Shown here piece by piece: positions 3,508 through 63,516 of a DNA stretch of 64,000 nucleotides. How positions within the stretch are numbered: the first letter of the stretch is position 1; every line of letters begins with the position of its first letter. The translations under genes and the position numbers were made by a program. Where the stretch lies: contig CBFHKH010000001.1 in NCBI GenBank assembly GCA_965656375.1, positions 644,291-708,290 of the forward strand. The letters are read 5' to 3'. The notes beneath the pieces are model-generated. The model did no database searches. It saw only the letters and a program-made list of their open reading frames with translations, and had not been told where the DNA came from. Source of the DNA: Minisyncoccia bacterium (GTDB lineage: Bacteria; Patescibacteriota; Minisyncoccia; Phycocordibacterales; UBA9973).

Positions 3508-3676
3508 AGATTTTTACTCCATACGCGGTAACATCCACGGACTCACTACGCATAAACGTGCTCGGTTTTTGCTTTTCTCACGCCGTCGCGTTGCGAAGAG
3601 AGTCGCTCGTAGGTATTTTCGCTCCTGGAATAATAAATGTTACTATAATAACGTGATTCACAAAGCAAAAAAATCA

Positions 3677-4456: not shown

Positions 4457-4490
4457 TATATTTACCCTATACACTGTATAATGGGCATAT

Positions 4491-4892: not shown

Positions 4893-4893
4893 C

Positions 4894-5791: not shown

Positions 5792-8260
5792 ATGAATAAA
5801 CCACTGATTCAAAAAATAACATCCTTCCTAATTATAGGCCTATTTTTGTTGCAGCTACTTTCTCCATCTTCCTTATATGCTGCACCCCTTAATTATGATA
5901 ATCCGAATAAAAGTGGAAATAACCCTTACCAACTTTCTCTCAAGGGTGTAGTTAGTAGCGGTTTACTTACATCTGTTGTCGGTTGTACTGGGATAGTTGA
6001 TAAAGTTGCCAAAGTTACAACAGATTTTGCTCAAAAACTAGCCGTAAAAAAAGCAAAGTCAAAAGCAACTAGTGCCGAAGCAAAAAGCCATCAGTCTGAT
6101 TCGGTCCCAGTCGTAGACTCTACAAGTATCAAAACCGAAGAACAAGGACACAACGACACACAAACAGATATCGAAAAAGATTCGTATACAGAAAATTGTT
6201 TAAAAGGTATTGCTATAACACTTGCCAAGAATCAGCTAACTGCAATGACAAAATACACCATGAACTGGATCACAACTGGATTCAATGGTGACCCGCTCTA
6301 CGTACGTGATGTAAATTCATATATGGACAGCCTTACGACAGATATCCTTGAGAAAGAAAATGAACTTTTCAAAGATCCAGATAACGCAGATGAATATCCA
6401 TGGGCGCGGAGTTATACACAAGGACAAGTAAATATATATAAATCTGCAAAAGACGCATACGGATCATTACGACAAGATTTAACCAATTACCTCACTCCTG
6501 GTTCGACTCCAGAGAGCTTCGCAAATGACTTTTCTCAAGGAGGATGGAATGGGTGGCTTGCGCTTACCCAGCGCCCTGAGAATAATCCACTTGGTTTTAA
6601 TATAGTAGCGACTGAAAATCTTAATAAACAAAAAAACAACGCAGTAGAAACAGCAAGAGCAGAAATACAAAGAGGCAATGGAGTTCTTGATCAGAAAAAA
6701 TGCGTTGAATATGAAAAGATAACCTTCTCAGGTGCTCGTACCTGTAATGGAGGAATTCCAGAAGATGAACTTATGCCTGGTACGACATGTATTCCTGACA
6801 AACCAAATAAAACTCCTACAAACAACGCGCCACGATGTATCAAATACGAAACTGTTACTCCAGGATCAGTTATCAAATCAAAGATCGATACATATATCAA
6901 CTCACCTGAGCGTCAGATAGAACTCGCTAATACAATTAATAGTGCACTTAATGCTCTTTTTGCTGCACTTATCACGAAATTTGAAGACCAAGGTCTATCA
7001 AGTCTTGGCTCAAAGGTCAACAATTTCTCATCACCAACAATAAGTGGCGGCTTTGGATCTAATCGTCTTTTTGATTCACTCGGAAATCCAATTTCATCGA
7101 CAAATATTTTTAATAATACAAGTAATGATGCAAGTGTTAATCAATCATTTGATATTACAAGAGATCTTGGTAATAAGTACGTCGAGGCACTCAATAGTGG
7201 TTCATGGGATGCTGATACGAATACTCCTGAGATCATTCCTGGAAAGGGTATAAAGCATCAGTATTATACTGTCTCAAAAGCAGGTGATACAAAACTTTTC
7301 CCTGGAACTCATCACTTTACTGTCGGAGAGAAAGTGTACTTTGACGGTACACTATGGAAAGTAGGAGTGCCAAAATACATTATAGGTACAAAAGGAGTCT
7401 TTCAAATACAAAAGGATTACGGAGCGTCAATCGCAAAAGCTGAAACTATTCTTCCACAAGTCATTCCTGCATTGGGTGAACTCGACTATTGTATTCCAGG
7501 TCCAAACCAAAATTGGATGATGACATCTACTGATGCGAAGGATGCATATAGTGATTATTTGAGTGGAGTAACTACCGAATATATACGTGATGTGTATGAT
7601 GAGTGTCCATTTATCGGATGTGACGGTATTCAATTTATCGGGGGATTACTCAATGGGGGACTTGATCACTCATACAATGTTATCTCTCTTCCTGATGAAA
7701 CTGAATACAAGGATTTATTCGATGATGCACGAAATCTCTGGGACAAGATCGTACAAGAAGAATTCTTCTGGATAGCTCGCAATGATATACATATGCGTTA
7801 CACATTCTCTTCAGACCATTGGGCGGTTGACCCGGCATACGTAGACAGACAAGTCGCAAAATGGACTGAGCTTTCGAAAAATGCATGGGCTGAATACATT
7901 ACAAAGGCAAAGGCTCTCTATGGTATCGGCAGCCCAATGCAAAGTGAATTTACATTTAATGGAGATTACAACACCTCCTACCTACCGATGGCTCAGGCAG
8001 GGCTTGATCTTGCAAAAGATATAGTAACAAATGCAAGCGACATCAAAGAAGCTATTGAAACGAATGAAACGAATATTGCTCAATCAAGTGCTACTGTATA
8101 TAAACTCACAACTATCAAAGACAAAGTCAACAAAATCATCCTTGCTGCACAAAAGCGTCGCAAAGATAAGAGAGATGCAGATGGATTAGGAGCTATACCC
8201 CAGATCTGTCTTGATAATGAACAAGTAACCTACATCGAAAATGGTGTACTTAAACGATAA
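5792..8260 (+). CDS. large secreted hypothetical protein (822 aa), T4SS-cluster associated
   Basis: Signal peptide MNKPLIQKITSFLIIGLFLLQLLSPSSLYA; long ORF. Has the size and position of Gram-positive T4SS surface/adhesin proteins, but no motif was recognised. Confidence 0.5.
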   Translation: MNKPLIQKITSFLIIGLFLLQLLSPSSLYAAPLNYDNPNKSGNNPYQLSLKGVVSSGLLTSVVGCTGIVDKVAKVTTDFAQKLAVKKAKSKATSAEAKSHQSDSVPVVDSTSIKTEEQGHNDTQTDIEKDSYTENCLKGIAITLAKNQLTAMTKYTMNWITTGFNGDPLYVRDVNSYMDSLTTDILEKENELFKDPDNADEYPWARSYTQGQVNIYKSAKDAYGSLRQDLTNYLTPGSTPESFANDFSQGGWNGWLALTQRPENNPLGFNIVATENLNKQKNNAVETARAEIQRGNGVLDQKKCVEYEKITFSGARTCNGGIPEDELMPGTTCIPDKPNKTPTNNAPRCIKYETVTPGSVIKSKIDTYINSPERQIELANTINSALNALFAALITKFEDQGLSSLGSKVNNFSSPTISGGFGSNRLFDSLGNPISSTNIFNNTSNDASVNQSFDITRDLGNKYVEALNSGSWDADTNTPEIIPGKGIKHQYYTVSKAGDTKLFPGTHHFTVGEKVYFDGTLWKVGVPKYIIGTKGVFQIQKDYGASIAKAETILPQVIPALGELDYCIPGPNQNWMMTSTDAKDAYSDYLSGVTTEYIRDVYDECPFIGCDGIQFIGGLLNGGLDHSYNVISLPDETEYKDLFDDARNLWDKIVQEEFFWIARNDIHMRYTFSSDHWAVDPAYVDRQVAKWTELSKNAWAEYITKAKALYGIGSPMQSEFTFNGDYNTSYLPMAQAGLDLAKDIVTNASDIKEAIETNETNIAQSSATVYKLTTIKDKVNKIILAAQKRRKDKRDADGLGAIPQICLDNEQVTYIENGVLKR

Positions 8261-8264
8261 TTAT

Positions 8265-9197
8265 ATGGAACATCATCCTAGAAAAACAAAAGCATTCATC
8301 ATAACTTTCATTGCGATACTTATTCTTTTGATCGTTGGATATTTAGTATTCAGAAACACTGGTACTATCTTTGGGATAAAGAGTAGTGGGAATACGAATA
8401 AGATATTTTCTCCACTTCTTGGAACATCTAAACAAAACACAGTGGATGTGAAACCCGTAAATACAGGTGGAGATACTCCAATAAACAATACTTCGACAAC
8501 GTTACCAACAACAAACCTCTCTGTCACAGATCCGAGTGGCATAGCTCCAGGCTCAGTTTCTGCTCCGATAGGTCAAGGTGGAACAACTAATCCAAATGGC
8601 GCGCCGGTTATCACACCACCATTTAACCCGCTCCCAACACCTACAACTGACTGTGTTGATGCAAGCGGTAATCTGATTCAATGTAACAATACTCCTACGA
8701 TCACAAATCCAGAGTGTTCAGACTCTATAGATAATGATAAGGATGGGTTAAGTGACGCAGCTGATTCAAGCTGTCATACGGATTATAATGCTTCGAATAT
8801 GCTTTCGTACGACAAGAATATCAACGATGAATCTCGTTTGCAGCCAATAACTGGAGATACAGAAATATCAATGTGTCCGGATGATCCACTTGTATTTACT
8901 GAAGAAGAAAAAGTTGAACTTGCGACACTACTCCGACAATATTACTTGCTTGCACCAACACTCAAGATTGAAGACGACGTTACTCTTGTAGACTATGACA
9001 ACCAAACAAATGAAGAACTGGTCAAGCAGGCAACTTCGCTTACGAATGATTGTAATGCCCAGAAGGCATCTCCTGGATACACGGGGCCACAGGCAATCAA
9101 AGACAATCCATATTATCAAAATCCAGTGGCAAACAGCGGTGCAAAAGAGTACATACCAGGATACAGCTTGTATGAATTGATGTTCAATATCTGGTAA
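8265..9197 (+). CDS. membrane-anchored Thr/Pro/Cys-rich hypothetical protein
   Basis: N-terminal TM AFIITFIAILILLIVGYLVF, then a T/P-rich linker and a Cys-containing domain. Start taken at the ATG at 8265 after the upstream stop. Confidence 0.45.
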   Translation: MEHHPRKTKAFIITFIAILILLIVGYLVFRNTGTIFGIKSSGNTNKIFSPLLGTSKQNTVDVKPVNTGGDTPINNTSTTLPTTNLSVTDPSGIAPGSVSAPIGQGGTTNPNGAPVITPPFNPLPTPTTDCVDASGNLIQCNNTPTITNPECSDSIDNDKDGLSDAADSSCHTDYNASNMLSYDKNINDESRLQPITGDTEISMCPDDPLVFTEEEKVELATLLRQYYLLAPTLKIEDDVTLVDYDNQTNEELVKQATSLTNDCNAQKASPGYTGPQAIKDNPYYQNPVANSGAKEYIPGYSLYELMFNIW

Positions 9198-9267: not shown

Positions 9268-11982
9268 GTGAGCAAAAAAACTCTCCCCCTCATTCTCATA
9301 CTTCTCATCATCGCGCAAATGTTTGTGCCTTTTACTGTAGGACGTGACAAAAACAACATTCCCACAATAAAGAAATCTGTAACAGAAGCAGCAATAATGC
9401 AGGTAGCAGTTGACTATACGAGCACGAGTACCGCTATAGATCTTACATTTAGAATTCATCGAGAAACGTCAGATAATCATGGTGTTTTTTACATGATTAC
9501 AAATAATCCGGGAACGACACTAAATCCTAATAAGGATTTTTCATGTACGATATCAACAGGACAAATCTCTACAGTTATTCCCTGCGACTTGAAAGGTGTC
9601 GTTGAAAATGAAAATGCAGATACAGAGATAACATCAGCAAGCCAAGTGTTTGTTCCTGCAAGTGGATCAACAGCGATGGTTACTGATCGAATAAGTAACA
9701 ATCAATTAACCGCTGCTCCAGAAACAACAGGCAGTGATGGAAAAACATACAAGGATGTAACTATAAAGAAAGTTATAAGCCCACTTACTGCAAATACTAC
9801 GTACTACTTGAATGTCTGGGCGTATAATGGAAATCTGGTACCTGAAGGAATTTCATTCTTCTTAGATAAAAAAATAACAACGTCAGTTGCAGGTCAAACT
9901 AATCAGACACCTACTACAGTCGGAACTGTCGAAACAACAGGCGATGGCATGCCAAGTTGTGTATTTGCGCACCCAATAGATGGAACATTTGTAGGATGTA
10001 TAGCGCAGCTTATATATTACGTAGTATTCGTTCCTACTTCATATATATTTGGACTTGCAGGAATGTTTTTCGATACAACGTTTAATTATTCTATACAAGA
10101 CAAATCGTACAACAATTCATTCGTGGTGGAAGGGTGGGGGATCATACGTGATTTCTGCAACATTTTCTTCATATTCGTACTTCTCTATGTAGCATTCTCT
10201 ACAATACTCGGTCTTGGTCATAGTAAACCAAAGGAGATGATTGTAAATGTAGTAATTATAGGGCTTCTGATCAACTTCAGTCTTTTTACCGCTCAAGTCA
10301 TTATAGATACTTCGAACATTTTAGCTCGAGTCTTTTATAATTCCGACGCAGTCAAAGTCACTAAAGATGGAGTGGATCAAGCAGGTGCAAATGGCGTTAT
10401 ACCGATATCAGCCTCGATAGTGAGTAAGGTTGATCCGCAACAACTTATCATAAATTCGAGTAGAGTTTCTGTCTTAAACAAAGCAACCGGAGAAGAAGCA
10501 AGTGCAGGAAATAAAAATTCCACACTTGGAGTAGGAGGATTTATATTGATAACACTCCTTGCAAGTGCGGTTAACGTTGTAGGATTCATTGTATTTCTCA
10601 TGGTTGGAATTATGCTTGTATCTCGAGTTATCGGACTTTGGTTTGCAATGATCTTTGCTCCGCTTGCCTTCTTCTCATATACCGTACCTCAGATGCAAGG
10701 TATGTCGATGGTGGGTTGGAAACATTGGTGGCCGGAAACAATCAAGCTCGCCTTTCTTGCGCCTATTTTCATATTCTTTCTCTACCTCATCCTCAGATTC
10801 ATAGAGTTAGGATTCGGATTAGGAGATGCGGCAAAAGAATCAGGTATCAACTTTGTCCTTCTTACTATGATTCCGTTTATATTTATAATGGTTCTTCTTT
10901 GGAAAGCAAAAGATGTAGCAAAAGATCTGTCCGGCAAGCTTGGGCAAGGAATAACCGGTGGTATATCTGCAGTGGGAGGTATGGCTCTTGGCGGAGCGGC
11001 ACTTGGAGCTGCATTTGCAGGAAGAAAGCTTATTGGAAGTACCGTAGCTCGAGCATCACGAGGAGATACTCTTTCTCAAAGATATGAAGATCCTACAAAG
11101 AGAGCAAAGATGAATGTACTTCAAAAGAGCTTTGGATACATGGGTTCAAAAGTGGGACTCGGAAAAGTATTTGGTAATACATATGACGCAAAAACTCGAA
11201 CAGTCGATAGTGGTATCGGTGGAGTTTTAAATAAGAAACAAAGAAAAGTGGGTGAAATTGACCATGCTCGACACGAGATGGATGCAATTAAAGAAAAAGC
11301 TGGTCTCAAAGGAGTTGATGATGATAGGATTTCTGGCGTAAATGAACAGAAGATGAAGGATACATATGTCAAAGAGAAGAAATCTATGGTTGAATCGGAA
11401 CTTAGAAAGAATGGTGGAGTGGTTGGCGGACAGAAGGTTGAAAGTGAAAATGAATTCAAGGCAAATAATCGAAATCAACTGGTCACAAAAGCGATGAACG
11501 ATCCAAACAACCTAGAGGCTAATGGTACTCTAAAGGATGAGGCAAAGAAACAGATTGAGAATACTCTCAATGCAAATTATGAAATCTATATTAAACCACA
11601 AGTTGAAGCAAAGGCTGCTCAGGATTATGGTCACCTTCGAGATGAATCGAAAACAAAAGTTAATCCACTCGATAGAACAATCGCTCGGTCAAATACTGCT
11701 TCATATGATGCTCGCAATATCTCACAGATGAAAGCGGATAAACGTGAAGGTATATTTACCAGAATGAGTGCAGGATTGATAGCTGGAATCGCTATGGGGG
11801 TACGTACAGGGCTCAAGAATAGTGGAATCAATCATGGTTCTGGCCAAAGTGACTTCCTTAAGGATATTGGACATACTATTACAGAAGCAATGAAGAGCGC
11901 AAAATTTAATGTGAAAGTAGAAGAAAGTCATGGACATGACGCGGGAGGTGATCATGGGCACGGCGGTGGAGGTCATCACTAA
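9268..11982 (+). CDS. VirB6/TrbL-like polytopic membrane protein with long charged C-terminal domain and His/Gly-rich tail
   Basis: GTG start. N-terminal signal plus ~230-aa extracytoplasmic domain, a central block of at least six hydrophobic helices (aa ~240-560), then a charged K/E-rich domain ending HGHDAGGDHGHGGGGHH. The architecture resembles PrgH/TcpH-type VirB6 proteins. Confidence 0.5.
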   Translation: MSKKTLPLILILLIIAQMFVPFTVGRDKNNIPTIKKSVTEAAIMQVAVDYTSTSTAIDLTFRIHRETSDNHGVFYMITNNPGTTLNPNKDFSCTISTGQISTVIPCDLKGVVENENADTEITSASQVFVPASGSTAMVTDRISNNQLTAAPETTGSDGKTYKDVTIKKVISPLTANTTYYLNVWAYNGNLVPEGISFFLDKKITTSVAGQTNQTPTTVGTVETTGDGMPSCVFAHPIDGTFVGCIAQLIYYVVFVPTSYIFGLAGMFFDTTFNYSIQDKSYNNSFVVEGWGIIRDFCNIFFIFVLLYVAFSTILGLGHSKPKEMIVNVVIIGLLINFSLFTAQVIIDTSNILARVFYNSDAVKVTKDGVDQAGANGVIPISASIVSKVDPQQLIINSSRVSVLNKATGEEASAGNKNSTLGVGGFILITLLASAVNVVGFIVFLMVGIMLVSRVIGLWFAMIFAPLAFFSYTVPQMQGMSMVGWKHWWPETIKLAFLAPIFIFFLYLILRFIELGFGLGDAAKESGINFVLLTMIPFIFIMVLLWKAKDVAKDLSGKLGQGITGGISAVGGMALGGAALGAAFAGRKLIGSTVARASRGDTLSQRYEDPTKRAKMNVLQKSFGYMGSKVGLGKVFGNTYDAKTRTVDSGIGGVLNKKQRKVGEIDHARHEMDAIKEKAGLKGVDDDRISGVNEQKMKDTYVKEKKSMVESELRKNGGVVGGQKVESENEFKANNRNQLVTKAMNDPNNLEANGTLKDEAKKQIENTLNANYEIYIKPQVEAKAAQDYGHLRDESKTKVNPLDRTIARSNTASYDARNISQMKADKREGIFTRMSAGLIAGIAMGVRTGLKNSGINHGSGQSDFLKDIGHTITEAMKSAKFNVKVEESHGHDAGGDHGHGGGGHH

Positions 11983-44479: not shown

Positions 44480-44711
44480 GGGCGAGGTCGTTTAACTAAT
44501 AACGCAAAACACCATCCTGGAAATGGCCGACCTCGCGAGTAGACCACTCCAAGATGGAGCTTTATACGCGAGGTCTTTATTTGTTTTGCCCTTTAATTGT
44601 AGCATAAATAGGCAGAGGGCGTACAAGAAACCGCCTAACGGCGGTTTCTTGTACGCAACATGTGGATAAGTACGTATTCTTCTCTTTCCTACTTTCCTTT
44701 TACTTATACTG

Positions 44712-44784
44712 TGCCCTCGGTAGGAATCGAACCTACGACCATCTCCTTAAAAGGGAGCTGCTCTACCGACTGAGCTACGAGGGC
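44712..44784 (-). tRNA. tRNA-Lys (anticodon UUU)
   Basis: Hand-folded cloverleaf: acceptor GCCCTCG/CGAGGGC, D-arm GCTCAGTCGGTAGAGC, anticodon loop CUUUUAA, T-arm GTAGGTTCGATTCCTAC. No encoded CCA. Confidence 0.8.
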
Positions 44785-55898: not shown

Positions 55899-55946
55899 CA
55901 TCTATTCCTTTTATATAGTCTTTAACTATCGTATAATAAAATAGTA

Positions 55947-57566
55947 ATGAGTAAATTATACAGTCGCTATTTCCCAACGCCAGCATATCTGGCTATGAGT
56001 TCATGCGCGCTTGATATTTCTGATCAATCCATCAAATATGGCGAACTCATCGCAACAGCTCACGGCTTGCGTCTTGGTCGCTATGGCCAAGAGAAAATAC
56101 CTCCTGGTGTTGTTGTATCTGGCAAGATTGAAAATGAAGCGAAACTTGTAGAGATTCTCAAGGCTTTGGCAGCGCGCGAACGACTGCACTTTGTCCGTGT
56201 ATCACTCCCCGAAGAGCAAATGTATCTTTTTACTCTGTCGCTTCCAAAAACTACAACAGGAGATCTTCGCGAGGCGATCTTGCTTCAGCTCGAAGAGCAT
56301 ATACCGCTACTTGCAATTGATACTATCTTTGACTTCAATATCATTTCAGAAACGAATCAAACTCTCTTTATAGAAGTCCTTGCTATTGCAACCTCTGTCA
56401 TAGAAAGTTATCTTTCATTGTTTAAAAAGGCTGGTCTTGCTCCGATTTCGTTTGAACTTGAAGCGCAAGCCATTGCACGTGCTGTGATACCACATGGAGA
56501 CATGAATCCAGTAATGATCGTCGACTTTGGAGAATCACGAACCGGGGTTTCCATTGCAGATGAAGGACGAGTACTTTTCACTACAACACTCGATATCGGT
56601 GGAATTACGCTTACCAATATGATTGCGAAGAATTTCTCTGTCTCATTTGAAGAAGCAGAAAAAATGAAGCGCTCATATAAGCTCGATGGAGATGCGAATA
56701 CCGATAGTATATTTCCTGTAATTTTGAACGGCATCTCAGTTCTTCGCGATGAACTCGTCAAACAGGACACATACTGGAAAACGCACGATAGAGAGAATAA
56801 AAAACATGAAGACATCAATCGTATTATTCTCTGTGGTGGAGATGCAAATCTCTCAGGCCTTTCTGATTATTTGGAAGCAAGTATGAAGATAAAAGTAGAA
56901 AATGCGAATGCATGGGTAAATATCTCTGATATGAAGATATCAGTTCCTGATATGACATTTGAAGAATCATTCGGCTACGCAACGGTGCTCGGGCTTGCGC
57001 TTGCGGATTATACAAAGGCGAGAACTATGATTAATGTCTTGCCAAAGGAAGAAAAGAAAGCCCTTAAAAGGGAATACTGGTTGCGTTTTGCAAGTGTGAC
57101 GTTTTCTTTACTTTCTATCATTGGTGTTATCGCAACTCTTCTCCTTCTTCCTTCATACTTCTTTTCAATCTCAAAAATGGCGCTTGCCGAAGAAAAACTC
57201 GAAACATTTAATCGTGCGAACCCTGACATTGCGACATATGACATCAACACCACAATTTTAACTATCAATTCCAAACTCGGACTTCTTGTTGTAAAAGATC
57301 AAGCGCAACCAGTAAGTGAAAAGATCATGACCACTATTTTAGGAAATTTACCCTCAGGTATAACAATAGAAAATATTCTCTATACCGAAACCGAAGCGAA
57401 AGACACCATAATAGAAGTACATGGTATCGCATCTGACCGTACAGCGTTGCGTACATACCAATCTACATTGAAAGAAAATCCTGCCATAAAAGAAGCAGAT
57501 GTACCATTATCGGACTTCTTGGGTAAATCGGATATTGATTTTACCATGACCATTACGTTGAAATAA
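55947..57566 (+). CDS. pilM: type IV pilus assembly protein PilM fused to PilN-like TM/periplasmic domain
   Basis: N-terminal actin-like PilM pattern (LDISDQSIKYGEL...GVVVSGKIENEAKLVEIL). C-terminal TM WLRFASVTFSLLSIIGVIATLLLL followed by a PilN-like domain. Confidence 0.65.
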   Translation: MSKLYSRYFPTPAYLAMSSCALDISDQSIKYGELIATAHGLRLGRYGQEKIPPGVVVSGKIENEAKLVEILKALAARERLHFVRVSLPEEQMYLFTLSLPKTTTGDLREAILLQLEEHIPLLAIDTIFDFNIISETNQTLFIEVLAIATSVIESYLSLFKKAGLAPISFELEAQAIARAVIPHGDMNPVMIVDFGESRTGVSIADEGRVLFTTTLDIGGITLTNMIAKNFSVSFEEAEKMKRSYKLDGDANTDSIFPVILNGISVLRDELVKQDTYWKTHDRENKKHEDINRIILCGGDANLSGLSDYLEASMKIKVENANAWVNISDMKISVPDMTFEESFGYATVLGLALADYTKARTMINVLPKEEKKALKREYWLRFASVTFSLLSIIGVIATLLLLPSYFFSISKMALAEEKLETFNRANPDIATYDINTTILTINSKLGLLVVKDQAQPVSEKIMTTILGNLPSGITIENILYTETEAKDTIIEVHGIASDRTALRTYQSTLKENPAIKEADVPLSDFLGKSDIDFTMTITLK

Positions 57567-57567
57567 T

Positions 57568-58125
57568 ATGAAAAAGAATCGTACAACAATTACATTCATA
57601 ATTTCACTCATCATCGCGGTGCTTGTTCTCGGAGTATTCTTTTTCTTCTTTACAATAGTAAAAAATAAAAACAAGCATACATCAGTTGTCCTTACCACAC
57701 TCGAGAACAAGATCGTAAAAAAGCGTAACGCAAGTGTGATCACACAAAAGATTGAAGAGGTAAATAGAACTGCAAGTCTCATAAATAGTTATTTTGCCGA
57801 TCCGAATCAGATTGATTCTTTTGTGAGTTATCTTGAGGAAATAGGTACGAGTGCGGACACAACAGTAAAAGTTGAAACTGTAGAAATCGCATCCCAGGTA
57901 AAGAATACGCTTTCGGTGACGGTTTCTCTAGAAGGGAATTTCTCAAATGTAATACGCACAGTAAAGCTTTTGGAGAATGCCCCATACAAGATCCATATCG
58001 GAAGAATGGCTCTCGATAAGCGCTCAAAGACGACTACAACACTCGATGTGAAAGGGGCGCCTACATCGCGAGAAGTTACCGTCTGGCATGCAGAAATCTC
58101 TTTTACTATTCTTAGTTCGTCATAA
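57568..58125 (+). CDS. PilO-like pilus assembly protein (TM + periplasmic domain)
   Basis: N-terminal TM ITFIISLIIAVLVLGVFFFFF; size and position after pilMN. Confidence 0.45.
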   Translation: MKKNRTTITFIISLIIAVLVLGVFFFFFTIVKNKNKHTSVVLTTLENKIVKKRNASVITQKIEEVNRTASLINSYFADPNQIDSFVSYLEEIGTSADTTVKVETVEIASQVKNTLSVTVSLEGNFSNVIRTVKLLENAPYKIHIGRMALDKRSKTTTTLDVKGAPTSREVTVWHAEISFTILSSS

Positions 58126-58127
58126 GT

Positions 58128-58445
58128 ATGATCAAATTATTTTCAAAAAACAAAAATAACTCAAAGTATAAAGACATAGGATCTGTGCTTGATCCTCATA
58201 AGCATTGGATCTTGCTCTTATGGATGTTCCTCGTACTTGTCGCGACCTTAATTCTCTTTAGTTTATATTTGTTGTTCCAAATACGTAATGATCAAGTATT
58301 CCAAGTCAAAGCAACGCTCGATGATAAGCCAGCAATCCTAAAAGATGATCTTCTTAAAAAAGTAACCGATTCATTTGAAGAAAAATCAAAAAAAGAAGCG
58401 GAACTTAAAACAAACCCTCCTTCGTATGAGGATCCAAGCACATAA
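58128..58445 (+). CDS. small single-TM protein, hypothetical (pilus operon member)
   Basis: WILLLWMFLVLVATLILFSLYLLF. Confidence 0.35.
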   Translation: MIKLFSKNKNNSKYKDIGSVLDPHKHWILLLWMFLVLVATLILFSLYLLFQIRNDQVFQVKATLDDKPAILKDDLLKKVTDSFEEKSKKEAELKTNPPSYEDPST

Positions 58446-58505: not shown

Positions 58506-58952
58506 TTATTTATAATTTTGTATAAAATCAAGCATATATCCTTTAAGGAGTGGACCTTCTTTACAGGGAAGATGTCCGTCACTAAAGACTGTATACTGGT
58601 TTCTCTTTATACCATAGAGAGAAAGGATTTTTTCCTTCTTTTCTTGATCGTGATCGCAGAGTATAAAATAAAGAGATTCTTTTTTAGAAGTAAATGAAGT
58701 ACAGGCAAGTTCAATAATCTCAAGAGTTCCCGATGATTCTTTACCCGCAAAGATAATAATATGCTCAAGGCTTTCTGTATGTTTGACCAATTCCATCCAA
58801 TTCGTATCACAGGGGAGCACACTTTTTGGTCCCTTTGGATTGAAACTAAGTGGCAAAAATAATACTGGTATCGTTTCTATGTTTCTAATTCCGATCCCAT
58901 ACGGGAAAAGTTCATTGTAGGTTACTACTGCTATGACCGGTTTTGATTCCAT
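58506..58952 (-). CDS. hypothetical protein
   Basis: 148-aa ORF with no recognised motif. Confidence 0.35.
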   Translation of the reverse strand: MESKPVIAVVTYNELFPYGIGIRNIETIPVLFLPLSFNPKGPKSVLPCDTNWMELVKHTESLEHIIIFAGKESSGTLEIIELACTSFTSKKESLYFILCDHDQEKKEKILSLYGIKRNQYTVFSDGHLPCKEGPLLKGYMLDFIQNYK

Positions 58953-59095
58953 AAAATATTTTTTTAAGTATATGAAAAAAGAACAATTTATCTTCAGTGT
59001 AGATAATTCAATTTAAAATATTTTTAAACAAAAATTAAATTTTTGTAGCAAGTGTATTTCGTAAGTTTTTTCAAACTTGCTATACTAAGCCTACA

Positions 59096-59761
59096 ATGAA
59101 AATATTAGTAATAGAAGATGAGGAAGCAATATCAACTTTTATAAAACGAGGTCTAGAAGCCGAATTATGCATTGTCGAGGTAGCATATACAGGAACTCGG
59201 GGTATTGAAATGGCCCATATGAATACGTATGATGTCATTGTTCTTGATTTTCATTTGCCTGATATGCTTGGTAGCGAAATCTCTGCCGAAATCCGTAAAC
59301 AAAAACCATCAGTTCCGATACTCGTATTATCTGTAGAAAATGATATGGATATAAAGCTCGATATGCTTTCTATCTGCGATGACTACATGACAAAGCCGTT
59401 TGCACTTCGCGAACTTGCAGTTCGACTGAAAGCACTGAACCGTCGTGGAGAAGTTCTTCATGGTAATGTTCTTGAAATCGGCGGTCTTGTCCTTGATTCA
59501 GTCAAATACATAGTTAAACTCGACGATAAAATTATTCCCCTTCGCAATAAAGAATTTGCACTCCTTGAGTATCTCATGCGCAATGAAGGAATAGTTGTTT
59601 CTCGAGAAATGATGCTTGAGCATGTATGGGATATGAATACTGATCCATTCACGAATACTGTAGATACTCATATTAGACTTTTACGTAAAAAGTTAGAAAG
59701 CAAAAAGCGCACATTTATCCAAACAGTGCCCAAACGTGGGTATTGTTTTACCGCTCGCTAA
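59096..59761 (+). CDS. OmpR/PhoB-family response regulator (receiver + winged helix)
   Basis: MKILVIEDEEAI...DVIVLDFHLPDMLG...; C-terminal ...RLLRKKLE...VPKRGYCF. Confidence 0.85.
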   Translation: MKILVIEDEEAISTFIKRGLEAELCIVEVAYTGTRGIEMAHMNTYDVIVLDFHLPDMLGSEISAEIRKQKPSVPILVLSVENDMDIKLDMLSICDDYMTKPFALRELAVRLKALNRRGEVLHGNVLEIGGLVLDSVKYIVKLDDKIIPLRNKEFALLEYLMRNEGIVVSREMMLEHVWDMNTDPFTNTVDTHIRLLRKKLESKKRTFIQTVPKRGYCFTAR

Positions 59762-59857
59762 TTTATAAATATTTTAAATTAGATTTAGAAATTGTTTATA
59801 TTGTGTTGATTAAAATACAATCAAGAATTGTTATTTTTAAACTTAAATTTTTAAATC

Positions 59858-60823
59858 ATGAAAAAAATCAATTGCACAACGCTTCCGGCTACGCCAGAAG
59901 CAGGCACCGTGTATTATCTTTTGCCACGGAAAGAACCAGACAAATTTTATTATGAAAGAACTGATAGGAATATCGGCTGGATTACAAAAGAAGAACAGGA
60001 GATTTTAAAAAATGCTGTAGTCGGCATTGCAGGATGCGGCGGGATGGGAGGTCTCGTTGCCTCTACGCTTTTACGTCTCGGCGTAGGCGAGATTAGAATT
60101 GCTGATAGTGAATGCTTTGACATCTCAAACCTTAATCGTCAGTACGGAGCTACTCAAAAAACAGTAGGGAAATCAAAAGCCTTCGAAACTGCACGTTTCC
60201 TTCGGGATATCGCCGATGATACGACGATCGTCGTCTATCCAAGCGGTATTACAGAGGAGACTGCTGATTCGTTTACAAACGGTTGCAATATTATCTGCGA
60301 CGAAATAGAATTTTGGGCCGTCGGTTCACGCATCTTACTACATCAAGCAATGCGAGCGTACAAGAGCCTCATACTCAATTCTCCCACAATAGGGCACCGG
60401 GTCTACGTGTTTAAATTTACACACGATTCACTGACTGTAGAATCCATGCTCCATATCGGGTACAAAAGCGCAATTGTCTTACAGCAAAAGATCCAAAGTG
60501 GGAATGCTACAGAAAGTGAGATACATACAGTTATGGATATGATGTTACAATTTGCAGCGCCGGAATTGCCAGAATATTCTCTAGATGAAAGAGAATACAG
60601 CACAGTCGTTGAGGTCAAAAAACGACTTCTGACTGAAACGACGGCTTCTATTATTGCTACGAATCCACCGATGGCATCAGGATTCCTTGCAAATCAAATA
60701 CTGTTTGAACTGCTCAAGGCATCAACGATCAAGAGGAACTTCGTCACTGTACCACGTATGCCTGGATATTTGATGTTTGATGCAGGATTATTCATTACTA
60801 AAAAAAAGGAGGGAATACTATGA
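59858..60823 (+). CDS. ThiF/MoeB/HesA-family E1-like adenylyltransferase with N-terminal extension
   Basis: VVGIAGCGGMGGLVASTLLRLGVGEIRIADSECFDISNLNRQ (GxGxxG Rossmann plus NLNRQ). Not TcdA-sized; no rhodanese or JAB domain. Confidence 0.7.
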   Translation: MKKINCTTLPATPEAGTVYYLLPRKEPDKFYYERTDRNIGWITKEEQEILKNAVVGIAGCGGMGGLVASTLLRLGVGEIRIADSECFDISNLNRQYGATQKTVGKSKAFETARFLRDIADDTTIVVYPSGITEETADSFTNGCNIICDEIEFWAVGSRILLHQAMRAYKSLILNSPTIGHRVYVFKFTHDSLTVESMLHIGYKSAIVLQQKIQSGNATESEIHTVMDMMLQFAAPELPEYSLDEREYSTVVEVKKRLLTETTASIIATNPPMASGFLANQILFELLKASTIKRNFVTVPRMPGYLMFDAGLFITKKKEGIL

Positions 60824-61419
60824 CTACCGTAATTATGATTGCATCATCTACTCATGTACGCAGAAAGGTGGTTGCATACACAAATGCAAAATATCTCGAA
60901 TATTTCGGAACAGTTCCCGGAGAGACTACGCTTTATATATATGCAGAAAAAGAAGGGAAGATTGTAGGATCAGCAGGACTCGATTTTTCTAATAAAAATG
61001 GCAAGATGCCACTTGAGTCTCTCTATACTATCAATCGGGAGCTTGTACCACTTCCTCTCGATTCCTCGAACGGTGTACAGATATGCCGTTTGATTGCAGA
61101 TGATCCAAAAGTATCTTCTCTGCCACTTGTGTATGCTTCATGTATGTATTCTATGCGACTCGGCAAAGTATACGGATGGTTAAACCATGTGGATACAGTA
61201 CATCGCATGTTCGTGCAGAAAGGGTTAGAGTTCATCTCGATACCAGATGCTGAACTTATAATAGAAAACATTCCGGAAGGTGATCGACCATTCTATATAA
61301 AACCACCATACGCAAAGTGTTATATCATGCCGCTCAAAGCCGCTTCGGTTGCACTCTTACCTCGAATGGAGATATTATTACGTAATAAAACAATTGCCTT
61401 TTCAAGCGATTTTTCTTAA
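60820..61419 (+). CDS. GNAT-fold-like N-acyltransferase candidate (FeeM/LuxI-like or hemolysin-like), translationally coupled to ThiF gene
   Basis: ATGA overlap with the upstream gene; SD AGGAGGG. Pattern GKIVGSAGLDF...VQICRLIADD resembles acyltransferase cores. Low certainty. Confidence 0.3.
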   Translation: MTTVIMIASSTHVRRKVVAYTNAKYLEYFGTVPGETTLYIYAEKEGKIVGSAGLDFSNKNGKMPLESLYTINRELVPLPLDSSNGVQICRLIADDPKVSSLPLVYASCMYSMRLGKVYGWLNHVDTVHRMFVQKGLEFISIPDAELIIENIPEGDRPFYIKPPYAKCYIMPLKAASVALLPRMEILLRNKTIAFSSDFS

Positions 61420-61481
61420 ATAATAGGAGCGCCCTTGGTTTATCCAGGCGCTCTTGTTTTAAATACACTGTATACTAGTAT

Positions 61482-63449
61482 ATGGAATCTATGGCCATAC
61501 ATATAAAAATTATACTTCTACTCATTATTGTATCCGTTTTGACGGTTGGTATTTTGGTGATCAAAAAGAATCCTCGATCTATTATCAATCGTTCTTTTTC
61601 TATCTTTCTCTTGGGCATAGTGTTTTTTATCGGAGGATTTCTACTTATGGGCACTCGATGTTCATTTGATATTTTCGATAAGACAATCCATTATGGAGGG
61701 CTTACTCTTCTTTTAGGGTTATTTCTCTTTTCCCAAGTGTTTCCGAACAGAGAGACTCTTCCACAGAAAAGATGGCCACTCTATATTCCGTTTATAGTTA
61801 TAGCGGTAGGGGTAATCCCATTTGATCTTCTTATTAAAGAAGCTCCTTTTAGTGGAGGGGAAGTTATTCCAAGCAATGGGCCGTTACTATTTCCCTACAT
61901 GATATTTTGGGGAGTTTATTTTCTTCTCTCGGTATATTTCTTGATACGAACGTATATTGCTACAACCGGAAAAATGAGAATGCAGATGAAATATCTTTTC
62001 ACGGGGATCATTATTGTGCTCGTATGTTTTTTTATCTTTGACTTGGTTTTCCCACTTGCAGGAATTTCATCGCTCGCACTGATCGGTCCAGTGTCTTCTG
62101 TTATTCTTGTGTGGCTTGCTGGATACGCTATTATTAAACATCAACTTCTTGATATTCGTATCATTATACAGCGCGGACTAATCTATATTGTTCTGTTTTC
62201 TATCATTTTCAGTTCATATGTGATCCTTCTACAGCTGCTCGGCTATTTGCTCCATAAGGCTGCAGGGATGACAGCAGTACTTAGTGCAGGTATTGTTATG
62301 ATAGGGGGGATATTTCTTGTTCGACCGCTCGAAGATTATTTCCGAAAAATAACAGACTCAATATTTTTCAAAGATAAATACGACTATCCTGATGCGCTTC
62401 ATAAACTAAGCAAGGTACTCCATACAAATGTAAGCGCAGGTGATATTATTCAAAATTCCTCTACGCTTCTCAAAGCGATATTGAAAACAGAATGGGTAGC
62501 ATTTCGATTACTCGAAAATGGAGAGATACGATCAGATCCAGGGGCTCTCGTATCAACAAATATTGTCTTTGAGGGGAAACGCATTGGAGTTCTTGAGCTT
62601 GGCCCAAAAAAATCAGGTGATCACTATACACCTTCTGATATGAAGCTCCTCGATACATTCGCATTTCAGGCTGCGGTTGCTCTTGAGAAGGGAAAACTAT
62701 ATGAAAGAGTCGAAGATTACAATACGCGATTGGAACAATTGGTAGAGAAGCGGACGCTCGAGATCAAAAAATTACAAGAAGATCAAAAGCAGGCTATGAT
62801 CGATATTTCCCACAATCTTCAAACACCACTCGCTGTCATAAAAGGGGAGATAGATCTTCTGTCGAACACACCACTCTATACCGACAAAATAAAAACAGTA
62901 AAAAAGTCTATAACACATGTTTCTCTCTTTATTCGACAACTTCTTCATTTGTCCAAGCTTGATCATGCAGCATTCCATGTGACACTGACTCAGATTGATC
63001 TATCGTTACTTATACGTGAGCAGATTGAATACTTCGAAGTAATGGCTGCTGAAAAGGGAATACGCATCACCACATCTCTTATGGAAAAAGTAACGATACG
63101 AGGAAATAAACGATTGCTGAACGAACTCCTCACTAATTTGATAAGTAATGCAATAAAGTACAGCAAGAATAATTCTAAAGAAAATACAATAGAGATTTTT
63201 CTATCTGAAGATACTGATGGAGTCCGTCTTATCATCACCGACGACGGGGTTGGAATTTCGGAGAAAGATCTACCGGATATATTTACTCGATTTTATCGGG
63301 GATCTCGTAATTCCAATACCGCTGGTACTGGTCTTGGACTTGCTATCTCTAAAAAGATTGTTGAAAAGCATAAAGGTACTATCAAAGCCGAGAGTGCACT
63401 TGGGGAGTATACTTCTTTCACTATCCTCTTTCCACTTTCCAAGAAATAA
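61482..63449 (+). CDS. sensor histidine kinase with N-terminal ~7-TM domain
   Basis: Seven hydrophobic helices. H-box ISHNLQTPLAVIKGEIDLL. N, G1 and G2 boxes (LTNLISNAIKYS, DDGVGIS, GTGLGLAI). Confidence 0.85.
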   Translation: MESMAIHIKIILLLIIVSVLTVGILVIKKNPRSIINRSFSIFLLGIVFFIGGFLLMGTRCSFDIFDKTIHYGGLTLLLGLFLFSQVFPNRETLPQKRWPLYIPFIVIAVGVIPFDLLIKEAPFSGGEVIPSNGPLLFPYMIFWGVYFLLSVYFLIRTYIATTGKMRMQMKYLFTGIIIVLVCFFIFDLVFPLAGISSLALIGPVSSVILVWLAGYAIIKHQLLDIRIIIQRGLIYIVLFSIIFSSYVILLQLLGYLLHKAAGMTAVLSAGIVMIGGIFLVRPLEDYFRKITDSIFFKDKYDYPDALHKLSKVLHTNVSAGDIIQNSSTLLKAILKTEWVAFRLLENGEIRSDPGALVSTNIVFEGKRIGVLELGPKKSGDHYTPSDMKLLDTFAFQAAVALEKGKLYERVEDYNTRLEQLVEKRTLEIKKLQEDQKQAMIDISHNLQTPLAVIKGEIDLLSNTPLYTDKIKTVKKSITHVSLFIRQLLHLSKLDHAAFHVTLTQIDLSLLIREQIEYFEVMAAEKGIRITTSLMEKVTIRGNKRLLNELLTNLISNAIKYSKNNSKENTIEIFLSEDTDGVRLIITDDGVGISEKDLPDIFTRFYRGSRNSNTAGTGLGLAISKKIVEKHKGTIKAESALGEYTSFTILFPLSKK

Positions 63450-63487: not shown

Positions 63488-63516
63488 TTGACATATTAAT
63501 CTAGATATGCTATAAT
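63488..63516 (+). promoter_or_regulatory. consensus sigma70-type promoter (TTGACA-17 bp-TATAAT) upstream of lipoprotein gene
   Basis: ttgaca at 63488-93, 17-nt spacer, tataat at 63511-16. A ~150-nt leader follows, containing the inverted repeat GTTTCTCAG...CTGAGAAAC. Confidence 0.55.

Follow-up and report, generated by a model that had tools for sequence, protein, structure and literature searches.

A ThiF-family enzyme and a LuxI/FeeM-like acyltransferase nested in a two-component system of Patescibacteria: a candidate cassette for synthesis and sensing of an N-acyl amino acid-derived signal

The window analyzed here, a 64,000-nt stretch of DNA from a Minisyncoccia bacterium, an ultra-small member of Patescibacteria, carries four consecutive genes that encode a response regulator (RR), a ThiF-family enzyme, a 199-aa protein, and a 7TM-GAF histidine kinase (HK). 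This block had been noted in a preliminary description of the same DNA, and all four open reading frames (ORFs) were found at the positions given there, on the plus strand. They are listed in Table 1 together with a divergent gene upstream of the RR and two predicted RR-binding boxes.

Table 1. Genes and predicted regulatory sites of the locus (window coordinates)
Feature	Coordinates	Strand	Length	Basis or remark
Divergent gene, probable regulon member (accessory fifth gene)	58506..58952	-	148 aa	Conserved position and predicted box
Predicted OmpR-type RR box, three half-sites (TTTAAT, TTTAAA, TTTAAA)	59012..59039	-		11-bp phase; faces the 148-aa gene
OmpR/PhoB-family RR (receiver and winged-helix DNA-binding domains)	59096..59761	+	221 aa	Pfam
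Predicted RR box, four half-sites (TTTATA 59762, TTTAAA 59773, TTTAGA 59784, TTTATA 59795)	59762..59800	+		Exact 11-bp phase
ThiF/E1-family ATP-dependent carboxylate-adenylating enzyme; proposed cyclase/activator of N-acyl amino acid	59858..60823	+	321 aa	Pfam ThiF
LuxI/FeeM-like GNAT-fold acyltransferase (A199); proposed N-acyl amino acid synthase	60820..61419	+	199 aa	Fold model, family matches
Sensor HK: N-terminal polytopic 7TM-type membrane domain, GAF, HisKA, HATPase_c	61482..63449	+	655 aa	Pfam

The RR matches the Pfam domains Response_reg (E = 5e-21) and Trans_reg_C (E = 8e-26), and the ThiF protein matches PF00899 (E = 3.6e-29). The best NCBIfam match of the latter is the uncharacterized family PRK08223 (E = 1e-37, under its cut-off) and not one of the MoeB, ThiF, or TcdA equivalogs, none of whose cut-offs is reached, with all scores far under; its score against the Rv1355c family, 64 bits versus a cut-off of 476, is likewise far below. 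Nucleotide-binding and catalytic residues that are invariant in 22 ThiF homologues include G59/G61/G62/G64, D83, N91/N93/R94/Q95, K107, and D148. By fold, the AlphaFold model (pLDDT 91.9) lies closest to the structures of AclA (9egb), ThiF, and SUMO E1; by profile, TcdA (the best PDB profile match, E = 3e-15) and AclA come nearest. MccB and PaaA give weak matches in both sequence and structure. The N-terminal extension, previously put at 45 aa, amounts to ~30 to 35 aa relative to the Pfam and NCBIfam models and is modeled as a short β-hairpin of ~25 aa; the MccB-type peptide clamp, an N-terminal peptide-binding domain of ~100 aa, is absent from the model. The ThiF sequence contains no CxxC zinc motifs, rhodanese, or any extra domain, and there is no adjacent ThiS/MoaD gene. 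The earlier statement that this enzyme has no rhodanese, JAB, or E2 partner thus holds and extends to ubiquitin-like partners, and the PADLOC E1-E2 matches cover only the Rossmann core.

The 199-aa protein reaches no Pfam gathering threshold, its sole match being a sub-threshold one to FeeM (E = 0.0024). Foldseek searches with its AlphaFold model (pLDDT 96.1) return, as the best PDB fold matches, the acyl-homoserine lactone (AHL) synthases TofI, RpaI, LasI, BjaI, and EsaI, as well as FeeM, with a probability of 1.0, TM scores of 0.5 to 0.64, and sequence identities of 8 to 16% (structures compared: PDB 3p2h, 1ro5, 5w8a, 1k4j, and 2g0b). Members of its family, which comprises 180 clusters at 50% identity, match T_hemolysin (26 of 61) or FeeM (10 of 61) in Pfam. 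On these grounds, the GNAT/LuxI-like candidate of the preliminary description models confidently as a LuxI/FeeM-like GNAT acyltransferase. [quoted passage not shown]

The 199-aa ORF is translationally coupled to ThiF: it shares 4 nt (ATGA) with the end of the ThiF gene, and a Shine-Dalgarno sequence, GGAGG, lies ahead of it at 60808-60812, inside the ThiF gene. Moreover, 12 of the best 120 ThiF homologues (~10%) are ThiF-GNAT fusions that involve two different GNAT subtypes; the A199-type domain is found at the C terminus of ThiF in the fused P0005, P0006, P0026, L014, and L081-L083. The overlap, the internal Shine-Dalgarno sequence, and the fusions argue for functional coupling of the two enzymes. 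Firmicutes relatives show the reverse gene order, GNAT followed by ThiF.

The HK matches HisKA_7TM (33.1 bits versus a cut-off of 28.6), GAF_2, HisKA, and HATPase_c, and has the H-box SHNLQTPL. It had been described as having seven transmembrane (TM) helices, and a 7TM-type domain is indeed present; simple hydropathy, however, shows 8 to 9 hydrophobic segments, two of them beyond that domain. The GAF domain had gone unmentioned. The TM region itself is homologous between cassettes (E = 1e-27 to 1e-85) and includes conserved motifs such as YAIVRHxLMDIRIVIQRGLIY.

We collected, via ThiF, 36 loci from species-representative genomes of Patescibacteria (candidate phyla radiation [CPR]). Gene order and strand are the same in ~30 of them; an RR homologue lies upstream of ThiF in 29, an A199-type GNAT is present in 28, and the 7TM kinase is present in 32. 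The GNAT slot is occupied in 4 further loci by a PF13444/PF00765/FeeM-type GNAT and in 2 by divergent GNAT-sized ORFs. The loci share almost no flanking genes and have no other genes in common beyond these four and the 148-aa gene. Since the order recurs in most of the 36 loci while the flanks are unrelated, the nesting of the enzymes within the two-component system (TCS) is not accidental. Relatives of the kinase without an insert are found only among distant ones, at 27 to 36% identity. With this result and the NCBIfam scores of ThiF, the test that the preliminary description set for its own refutation does not refute it.

The 96-nt spacer between the RR and ThiF genes (59762-59857) is AT-rich, as reported previously, and contains no ATG-initiated ORF. 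No small ORF is conserved in this spacer over 26 loci, and several of the spacers have none of at least 5 aa. With no conserved precursor peptide, no MccB-type N-terminal domain, and no β-grasp gene, the microcin C, RiPP, and ubiquitin-like analogies drawn earlier fail. The spacer opens with direct repeats of TTTAnA in 11-bp phase, typical of OmpR-type sites and predicted to be bound by the RR. They overlap a promoter-like element at its -35 position; the TACAAT of this element lies at 59816-59821. The Gibbs motif information is 10.66 bits, versus 8.2 ± 0.25 in dinucleotide-preserving shuffles (~10 standard deviations higher). In leave-one-out scans of 26 loci, each ~15 kb long, the highest-scoring site lies inside the ~100-bp spacer for 14 loci, and the spacer site ranks among the top three for 21; in 5 loci, the motif is outside the top 4. 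It is also found beside RR genes in metagenome loci outside the training set. Both the motif and the surrounding DNA are AT-rich, which counts against the motif.

The second predicted box points toward the 148-aa gene from ~70 nt upstream of it and has the highest score, 18.1 bits, in a leave-one-out position weight matrix scan of a 14-kb stretch of the window. Homologues of the 148-aa gene lie directly upstream of the RR in 10 of the 36 CPR loci, and equivalent boxes precede those in L001, L003, L004, L018, L030, and L033. The phased repeats upstream of ThiF and of the 148-aa gene predict positive feedback and one output gene. The 148-aa protein has no match in Pfam, NCBIfam, PADLOC, or PDB sequences; invariant residues of its family include a C99/H101 pair (LCDHD in most members) and C130-x-E132.

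The closest known chemistry appears to be that of the oxazolone pathway, in which an N-acyl amino acid synthase is followed by an ATP-dependent ThiF cyclase (TyzABC [PMC10404671]; TrzAS [PMC12856293]), and this pair offers a better analogy than the RiPP and ubiquitin-like systems. [quoted passage not shown] The cassette resembles these systems in its operon-like genes and in the ThiF-centered fusions of its relatives. It differs from them in that the ThiF fusion partner is the acyltransferase and not an oxidase, that the enzyme pair sits inside a TCS, that the host is a CPR bacterium, and that no nitroreductase-superfamily desaturase, the third and defining enzyme of that pathway, is fused or adjacent, so that an unsaturated, tyrazolone-type product is not expected. 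Further, its acyltransferase, at ~200 aa, belongs to a different sequence family (T_hemolysin/FeeM-like) than TyzA (~320 aa). TcdA (the tRNA ct6A dehydratase), MccB, and PaaA also combine carboxylate adenylation on a ThiF fold with intramolecular capture; their substrates, however, are tRNA or peptides, and MccB and PaaA come with an N-terminal peptide-binding domain and a precursor gene, neither of which is present here.

A synthase gene beside a membrane histidine kinase is found in the quorum-sensing circuits LuxM/LuxN, CqsA/CqsS, LqsA-LqsR-LqsS, PhcB/PhcS/PhcR, and AgrBDCA. As in these circuits, the cassette has synthase genes in one operon with an RR and a polytopic membrane sensor kinase, predicted positive autoregulation, and a ligand presumed to be lipophilic or labile. 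Unlike them, it combines GNAT and ThiF synthases with a HisKA_7TM-GAF sensor and encodes an OmpR-type DNA binder first and the enzymes between the RR and the HK.

We think it rather likely that the block is a self-contained cassette for synthesis and sensing of an N-acyl amino acid-derived signal. By analogy with the oxazolone systems, its two enzymes probably make a fatty-acyl amino acid-derived small molecule. The GNAT would N-acylate an amino acid (or a related carboxylate-bearing amine) from an activated acyl donor, and ThiF would use ATP to adenylate the free carboxylate of the resulting N-acyl amino acid. Cyclization to a 5(4H)-oxazolone would follow through attack of the amide oxygen on the adenylate, the reaction described for TyzB, OxzB, and TrzS. 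Because there is no nitroreductase-type desaturase, the oxazolone is expected to be saturated; given the reactivity of saturated 5(4H)-oxazolones, the actual product may differ and could arise instead when the adenylate or oxazolone is trapped by some other nucleophile. In both cases, a neutral, lipophilic, easily hydrolyzed compound would be expected. The 7TM-GAF kinase, next in the operon, could sense this product or its membrane build-up and phosphorylate the OmpR-type regulator, whose binding to the repeats over the -35 region upstream of the ThiF, acyltransferase, and kinase genes would create positive feedback and whose binding upstream of the 148-aa gene would produce the output. To our knowledge, CPR bacteria generally lack de novo fatty acid synthesis, which poses an acyl-donor supply problem for the cassette. 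The preliminary interpretation, partly supported as a whole, had proposed a small-molecule synthesis-sensing module, which fits the conserved nesting and the ThiF-GNAT fusions; a signaling function is inferred. Retained in dozens of related species, the block is a strong candidate for an undescribed circuit of cell-to-cell signaling.

A less likely but serious alternative is that the enzyme pair is a regulated output and there is no autoinducer loop: the kinase would sense an envelope- or host-derived cue, perhaps one unrelated to the enzymes, and the RR would induce the enzymes, whose product, an N-acyl amino acid or an oxazolone lipid, would serve in the membrane of the producing cell, in protection against stress, or as an antimicrobial or host-directed effector. 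The enzymes do lie downstream of a predicted RR box, exactly as expected of an output, and aminolipid synthases are found among the PF13444-type GNATs. Outside CPR, close homologues of the pair, in Legionella norrlandica, a gammaproteobacterial metagenome-assembled genome, and Thermoanaerobaculia, have no adjacent TCS, so the pair can function without a dedicated sensor. Known tyrazolones and tryptazolones are stress-linked lipids of unknown role, the tryptazolones being mostly cell associated (PMC10404671; PMC12856293). On the other hand, the kinase shares an operon with the enzymes and follows them, and the same RR/kinase family is paired, in the same slot, with several unrelated small-molecule modules that tailor amines or amino acids: a methyltransferase with a FeeM-like GNAT, an AdoMet decarboxylase with a GNAT and an NNMT-like methyltransferase, and a pyruvoyl histidine decarboxylase. 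Such pairing would be accounted for more readily if each sensor responded to the product of the module beside it. With a change of GNAT type, divergence is greater in the sensor region than in the kinase core, a weak point that comes from only 4 loci, with phylogeny as a confounder. Finally, the conserved 148-aa gene has its own predicted RR box, so the enzymes are not the sole output.

It is improbable, in our estimate, that the enzymes act in the opposite order, with ThiF adenylating an amino acid or a carboxylic acid, fatty or otherwise, and the GNAT using the adenylate to acylate an amine. The resulting amide, still the signal or effector of the cassette, would form without CoA or acyl carrier protein, which would suit CPR cells given their acyl-donor supply problem. 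Both the gene order and the fusion order place ThiF before the GNAT, and ThiF enzymes generically form acyl-adenylates that are captured by various nucleophiles (PMC12596934). However, sister cassettes L087, L088, L091, L093, and L111 combine the same GNAT types with a methyltransferase only; as these cassettes lack an activating enzyme, their GNATs have to draw on a donor that is already activated. All characterized systems of an N-acyl amino acid synthase and ThiF have an acyltransferase that uses acyl-CoA, with ThiF acting after it (PMC10404671; PMC12856293), and the Firmicutes gene order also argues against the reversal.

Very unlikely is a peptide or protein route, in which ThiF would activate the C terminus of a ribosomal peptide (microcin C or pantocin type) or a ubiquitin-like protein for tailoring by the GNAT, and the kinase would respond to the peptide. 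Although 6-7TM kinases such as AgrC sense peptides and the weakly matching MccB and PaaA are ThiF-family enzymes that perform such activation, the findings given above on the spacers, the shared genes, the N terminus of ThiF, the missing E2, JAB, and β-grasp partners, and the Rossmann-only PADLOC matches all speak against it. Least probable, and effectively refuted by synteny kept in ~30 species-level genomes with varying flanks, is a chance juxtaposition of an unrelated TCS with a MoeB/ThiF cofactor enzyme or a tRNA-modifying, TcdA-like one, which the generic ThiF-family similarity and the TcdA and ThiF matches in PDB might suggest and against which the GNAT fusions, the equivalog scores, and the lack of zinc motifs, rhodanese, and ThiS/MoaD also count.

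The synthesis-and-sensing reading has a precursor in the work of Bernard et al. 2020 (PMC7567580), who described 18 CPR cases of LuxI-like synthase genes beside a sensory kinase and proposed them as complete quorum-sensing systems. These candidates were read there as AHL systems, unlike the cassette described here, and the term ThiF occurs 0 times in the paper; in the parts of it available to us, an A199-type family, an RR box, or interchangeable inserts are not mentioned. The 18 cases probably overlap with the LuxI-type variants of the cassette. Some sister cassettes hold domains that match PF00765, PF13444, or PF21926, and the ThiF cassette itself is joined in some loci by additional methyltransferases or by an ADI/DDAH-like enzyme, as would be expected of a biosynthetic gene cluster.

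The four genes of the cassette (see the table) were confirmed at the positions assigned to them in the preliminary description, all on the plus strand, and no further ORF was found inside the block from the response regulator (RR) to the histidine kinase (HK). The receiver and Trans_reg_C domains of the RR both score above the Pfam gathering cut-offs, as do the HisKA_7TM (33.1 versus 28.6), HisKA (33.7 versus 26.9), and HATPase_c (100 versus 26.4) domains of the HK. By domain content, the two proteins are an OmpR/PhoB-family two-component system (TCS) with a HisKA_7TM sensor kinase. The HK had been credited with seven transmembrane (TM) helices; its assignment as a sensor kinase stands, but simple hydropathy analysis gives 8 to 9 hydrophobic segments. 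The stop codon of the ThiF-like gene overlaps the start codon of the gene for the 199-aa protein (ATGA), and a GGAGG sequence lies 8 nt upstream, within the ThiF gene, which points to translational coupling of the two genes. Between the stop codon of the acyltransferase gene and the start codon of the kinase gene are 62 nt that contain a terminator-like hairpin (GAGCGCC-N13-GGCGCTC, then TTGTTTT); it could attenuate read-through, setting different levels for the enzymes and the kinase. Just past the kinase stop codon, a TG-extended promoter (TTGACA-17-TATAAT) matches the sigma-70 consensus perfectly; it presumably drives the gene that follows and sets the cassette's 3' limit.

Table. Features of the cassette and its surroundings in the window
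Feature	Position	Strand	Description
tRNA-Lys	44711-44784	-	Anticodon TTT
tRNA-Arg	48031-48105	-	Anticodon GCG
tRNA-Ser	50277-50364	-	Anticodon TGA
Upstream gene run	51025-58445	+	Co-directional genes
PilM-like protein	55947-57566	+	539 aa, within the upstream gene run
148-aa ORF	58506-58952	-	No family match (Pfam, NCBIfam, PADLOC, PDB sequences)
Top-scoring RR-box candidate	59012-59039	-	Leave-one-out scan
RR	59096-59761	+	221 aa; Response_reg and Trans_reg_C (Pfam)
RR-ThiF spacer	59762-59857		96 nt
Candidate RR-box half-sites	59762, 59773, 59784, 59795	+	TTTATA, TTTAAA, TTTAGA, TTTATA; exact phase
ThiF-like	59858-60823	+	321 aa, single domain; PF00899, E = 3.6e-29
199-aa ORF	60820-61419	+	Sub-threshold FeeM match only (Pfam)
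Terminator-like hairpin	61427-61460		Between the 199-aa ORF and HK
HK	61482-63449	+	655 aa; HisKA_7TM, GAF, HisKA, HATPase_c (Pfam)
Promoter	63488-63516	+	Sigma-70 consensus

A scan based on a ThiF alignment, with one genome per species, returned 274 relatives; 80 of them were retained, and the window proteins were mapped onto their ORFs. These 80 include 36 loci from the CPR (Patescibacteria), representing Paceibacterota, Nomura-, Azam-, Taylor-, and Adlerbacteria, and others. The RR is encoded in 29 of the 36, the homologous 7TM kinase in 32, and an acyltransferase of the same family as the 199-aa protein (hereafter, A199-type) in 28; the same slot is taken by a GNAT of the PF13444/PF00765/FeeM type in 4 more loci and by divergent GNAT-sized ORFs in 2. 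Order and strand in the CPR loci are always RR, ThiF, GNAT, HK, and conservation among the cassettes extends to the kinase's TM region (E values from 1e-27 to 1e-85). Fusions of ThiF with GNATs of two different subtypes account for 12 of the 120 top ThiF homologs, with genomic cases in L014 and L081 to L083. Homologs of the genes that flank the cassette in the window, including the type IV pilus genes, are found in only 0 to 3 of the 36 loci. The nesting of the enzyme pair in a TCS, noted in the preliminary description, is therefore not accidental, as the gene order is conserved in the CPR loci and the flanks vary, and a chance juxtaposition is essentially excluded. The upstream gene run, which includes a PilM-like protein with a weak PilN-like C terminus, suggests a type IV pilus cluster; a link of the cassette to these genes was dropped because they are not kept beside it in other species. 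One Paceibacteria contig (L015) encodes two tandem 7TM-kinase paralogs (positions 1930 to 4062 and 4068 to 5351) after the ThiF-A199 pair. The three tRNA genes are the sole Rfam matches in the window.

The 199-aa protein lacks a PF00765 match in the Pfam scan and yields zero matches in a search of PDB sequences. A word-indexed homology search gave 3 matches with this protein and 6 with a 61-sequence profile; an exhaustive profile search of representatives revealed a family of ~180 clusters (50% identity level), with lengths of 185 to 210 aa in almost all cases. Some members form the C-terminal domain of ~525-aa ThiF fusions, and others are N-terminal domains joined to a class I methyltransferase. 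This second kind of fusion is seen in the 463- to 468-aa proteins P0187 and P0215, in which an A199-type domain precedes a class I SAM methyltransferase. Among the 61 family members scanned against Pfam, 26 matched T_hemolysin and 10 matched FeeM, both of which are LuxI-like GNAT families. An AlphaFold model built on the family alignment (pLDDT 96.1, pTM 0.92) has as its best matches among solved structures the acyl-homoserine lactone (AHL) synthases TofI, RpaI, LasI, MesI, BjaI, and EsaI, with FeeM likewise matched (probability 1.0, TM score of about 0.6). On these structural matches, the 199-aa protein is predicted to be a LuxI/FeeM-type acyltransferase, the likeness to LuxI being at the fold level only.

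The ThiF-like protein is harder to place. Its best NCBIfam match is the uncharacterized family PRK08223 (E = 1e-37, under the cut-off of that model); the ThiF and MoeB models give 50 to 73 bits against cut-offs of 152 to 450, and the Rv1355c-family model gives 64 bits against 476. The protein thus falls far under the equivalog cut-offs of ThiF, MoeB, MoeZ, TcdA, and SAMP-E1. Its translated sequence contains no CxxC zinc sites, rhodanese domain, or extra domain, and no gene for a ThiS/MoaD-type partner is found within the four-gene block; with these features and the low scores, a MoeB/ThiF-type sulfur carrier-activating enzyme was rejected. The GxGxxG motif, D83, the NxNRQ motif at positions 91 to 95 (with R94), K107, and D148 are invariant across 22 homologs. 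From the ThiF/TcdA alignment, we infer that D148 is the counterpart of the catalytic Asp mutated in the D217A variant of TrzS, the ThiF-type enzyme of a known oxazolone pathway. Profile comparison puts TcdA and AclA in the lead, and the structures nearest to the model (pLDDT 91.9) are those of AclA from Tenacibaculum discolor (9egb), ThiF, SUMO E1, and MoeB; a literature search on this AclA found nothing. This looks like an active adenylating enzyme that is about equidistant from all characterized clades. The N-terminal extension reported earlier does exist, but its length, given as 45 aa, comes to about 30 to 35 aa when set against the family models.

In the reverse test, a metagenome scan with the 7TM-GAF region of the kinase, 39 loci were collected. 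All kinases with at least about 35% identity and enough upstream sequence are preceded by a GNAT-containing insert, most commonly ThiF plus A199. The alternative is a class I methyltransferase with a FeeM/LuxI-type GNAT, either separate (L087, L091, and L093) or fused (L088 and L111). Among the more distant kinases, an AdoMet decarboxylase with a GNAT-like ORF is found in L096, L101, and L109; L101 additionally has an NNMT/PNMT-like methyltransferase, and in both L101 and L109 the module is preceded by a membrane protein (weakly MtN3-like in L109). L102 carries a pyruvoyl histidine decarboxylase and a 227-aa protein, and L099 and L100, grouped with the more distant kinases (27% and 36% identity), have no insert at all. 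These alternative inserts suggest a modular family of cassettes for signals derived from amines or amino acids. Some ThiF cassettes have also gained tailoring genes between the RR and the HK: one class I methyltransferase each in L005 (6083 to 6814) and L040 (6151 to 6858), and, in L016, two methyltransferases together with an ADI/DDAH-like (arginine deiminase-like) enzyme (6155 to 6940, 7945 to 8730, and 9356 to 10132). The ADI/DDAH-like enzyme is a hint that the L016 lineage uses a substrate derived from arginine. Since L005, L040, and L016 contain both kinds of enzymes, the idea that the methyltransferase merely replaces ThiF on the same carboxylate is weakened. With its swapped inserts and gained tailoring genes, the region resembles in its behavior a small biosynthetic gene cluster for which a conserved RR/HK pair serves as the chassis. 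Where the acyltransferase is of a different type, the TM sensor region shows 0.35 bits per residue versus 0.52 where it is the same (n = 4 versus 28) with kinase cores equally conserved, a comparison that is confounded by phylogeny and gives a weak hint that sensor and synthase co-vary.

Gibbs sampling on the RR-ThiF spacers yielded an 18-nt motif of the type TTTAnn-N5-TTTAGA, in which half-sites, often 3 to 4 of them, recur as direct repeats every 11 bp; its information content is 10.66 bits, compared with 8.2 ± 0.25 for dinucleotide-preserving shuffles. When each ~15-kb locus was scanned on both strands by leave-one-out, the highest-ranked site fell inside the ~100-bp spacer in 14 of 26 loci, and in 21 of 26 a spacer site ranked among the best three. 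In the window, four half-sites lie upstream of a TACAAT sequence at 59816. The motif is also found at RR-proximal promoters in metagenome loci outside the training set, including a 27-bit site in L099 on a contig of 54% GC. Phased direct repeats are the classic type of OmpR/PhoB-family site, and we infer that the RR binds these repeats; their conserved position is where an autoregulatory RR site of a synthase operon would be expected. The top-scoring candidate in the window faces the divergent 148-aa gene from a position ~70 nt upstream of it. In 10 of the 36 CPR loci, a homolog of this gene adjoins the RR on its upstream side, and in 6 of these 10 the leave-one-out scan put a top-ranked site upstream of the homolog and pointing to it, whichever strand the homolog is on; the 148-aa gene may be the output gene of the circuit. 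Its product has an invariant C99/H101 pair (LCDHD in most homologs), an invariant C130-x-E132, and a conserved FAGK-x-SG stretch; a thioredoxin-like identity was rejected, as the weak PDB matches (E values of 0.06 to 0.5) are not significant.

The closest characterized chemistry is that of oxazolone biosynthesis, in which OxzA, TyzA, and TrzA, enzymes of the FeeM/LuxI fold, N-acylate an amino acid from acyl-CoA (bioRxiv 10.1101/2020.06.11.147165; PMC10404671; PMC12856293), and a ThiF-type enzyme then adenylates and cyclizes the product, which is desaturated by a nitroreductase-family oxidase (same papers; reviewed in PMC12596934; related clusters in PMC12479983). In the case of TrzS, the ThiF step by itself gives a saturated cyclized intermediate (PMC12856293). 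The window block resembles the Oxz/Tyz/Trz pathways in having an adjacent FeeM/LuxI-fold acyltransferase, a fold-level match only, and a ThiF with an apparently intact adenylation motif. However, this ThiF has no fused or adjacent nitroreductase-superfamily flavin oxidase, and the only other gene that the 36 loci share is that for the 148-aa protein, which matches no family. Because the oxidase is absent, the cassette is not a strict member of the Oxz/Tyz/Trz group.

Our preferred reading, a tentative one, is that the cassette both makes and senses a small molecule. By analogy with oxazolone biosynthesis, the acyltransferase would form an N-acyl amino acid, and ThiF would adenylate its carboxylate; the product would be a saturated 5(4H)-oxazolone or would arise from a different capture of the adenylate. 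The 7TM-GAF kinase would detect the resulting molecule, and the RR would positively feed back on the operon and induce the 148-aa gene. A farther-reaching reading, which we consider less likely than not, is that the cassettes represent a previously unrecognized family of quorum sensing (QS)-like circuits in Parcubacteria-type CPR, with one RR/7TM-GAF-kinase chassis and swappable modules, in which the autoinducer of the commonest version, that of the window, would be a ThiF-activated N-acyl amino acid derivative, e.g., a saturated 5(4H)-oxazolone. The main alternative, which we consider rather unlikely, is that the enzymes are a mere regulated output and the kinase senses some other cue, such as a membrane or stress lipid. 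It appears improbable that ThiF comes first and hands an acyl-adenylate to the GNAT: the sister cassettes that pair a GNAT with a methyltransferase only indicate that the GNAT uses a pre-activated donor, which favors ThiF acting after it. The ribosomally synthesized peptide (RiPP) or ubiquitin-like route raised in the preliminary description did not hold up. The spacer is real and contains no ATG, and no small ORF is conserved among the RR-ThiF spacers of 26 loci, several of which have no ORF of at least 5 aa, the remainder having unrelated, mostly TTG-initiated ones. No other gene common to the 36 loci could encode a ubiquitin-like or precursor protein, and the extension of the ThiF protein is modeled as just a short β-hairpin of ~25 to 35 aa, so that an MccB/PaaA-type system was rejected and the peptide reading is essentially excluded. 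An anti-phage defense role as a CBASS Cap2 was also rejected, as the PADLOC matches of ThiF are to generic Cap2 E1-E2 models of 430 to 780 aa and are confined to the Rossmann core (residues ~43 to 140), with no meaningful defense partners (nothing for two of the other cassette proteins and weak partial matches for two).

CPR bacteria are ultra-small, mostly uncultured, and host dependent, and little is known of how they perceive either their hosts or the density of their own population; a modular synthase-sensor system of wide distribution would offer a concrete handle on their sensing and communication. Bernard et al. 2020 (PMC7567580) listed 18 CPR "LuxI homologs" beside a sensory kinase as candidate AHL systems; the paper does not mention ThiF. 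Full-text literature searches found nothing tying ThiF or N-acyl amino acid synthases to a histidine kinase in Patescibacteria. Each component belongs to a familiar type; what appears to be new is the way they are combined. An N-acyl amino acid synthase/ThiF pair that lacks the oxidase sits inside a dedicated RR/7TM-HK pair, accompanied by a predicted operator and a putative output gene, and this arrangement is one of several within a modular family. The role of N-acyl oxazolones and N-acyl amino acids is openly stated to be unknown, with signaling merely speculated (PMC12856293; bioRxiv 10.1101/2020.06.11.147165). The cassette ties the synthase/ThiF pair to a dedicated kinase, regulator, predicted operator, and putative output gene, and this hard-wiring to a sensor system makes the signaling hypothesis directly testable with four small genes, a compact route to the function of N-acyl oxazolone-type metabolites. 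If the QS-like reading is true, these bacterial metabolites would for the first time have a receptor and a physiological role, and there would be a new class of autoinducers. A 2025 review names OxzB as the one ThiF-like enzyme with a small-molecule substrate that its authors knew of (PMC12596934); a ThiF working without an oxidase partner would extend this chemistry.

Outside the CPR, overlapping genes for a ThiF (46 to 50% identity) and an A199-type protein are found in Legionella norrlandica (L026), a gammaproteobacterial MAG, and Thermoanaerobaculia (the other loci being L025, L027, and L032), with no TCS adjacent, which may reflect horizontal transfer of the pair alone. In Firmicutes (L045 to L075, from Alkalibacterium, Paenibacillus, Paraliobacillus, and others), there is a conserved pair in reverse order: a ~202-aa GNAT that is weakly LuxI/PF13444-like is followed, usually with an overlap, by a 252-aa ThiF, shorter than that of the window, with no adjacent kinase. 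[quoted passage not shown]
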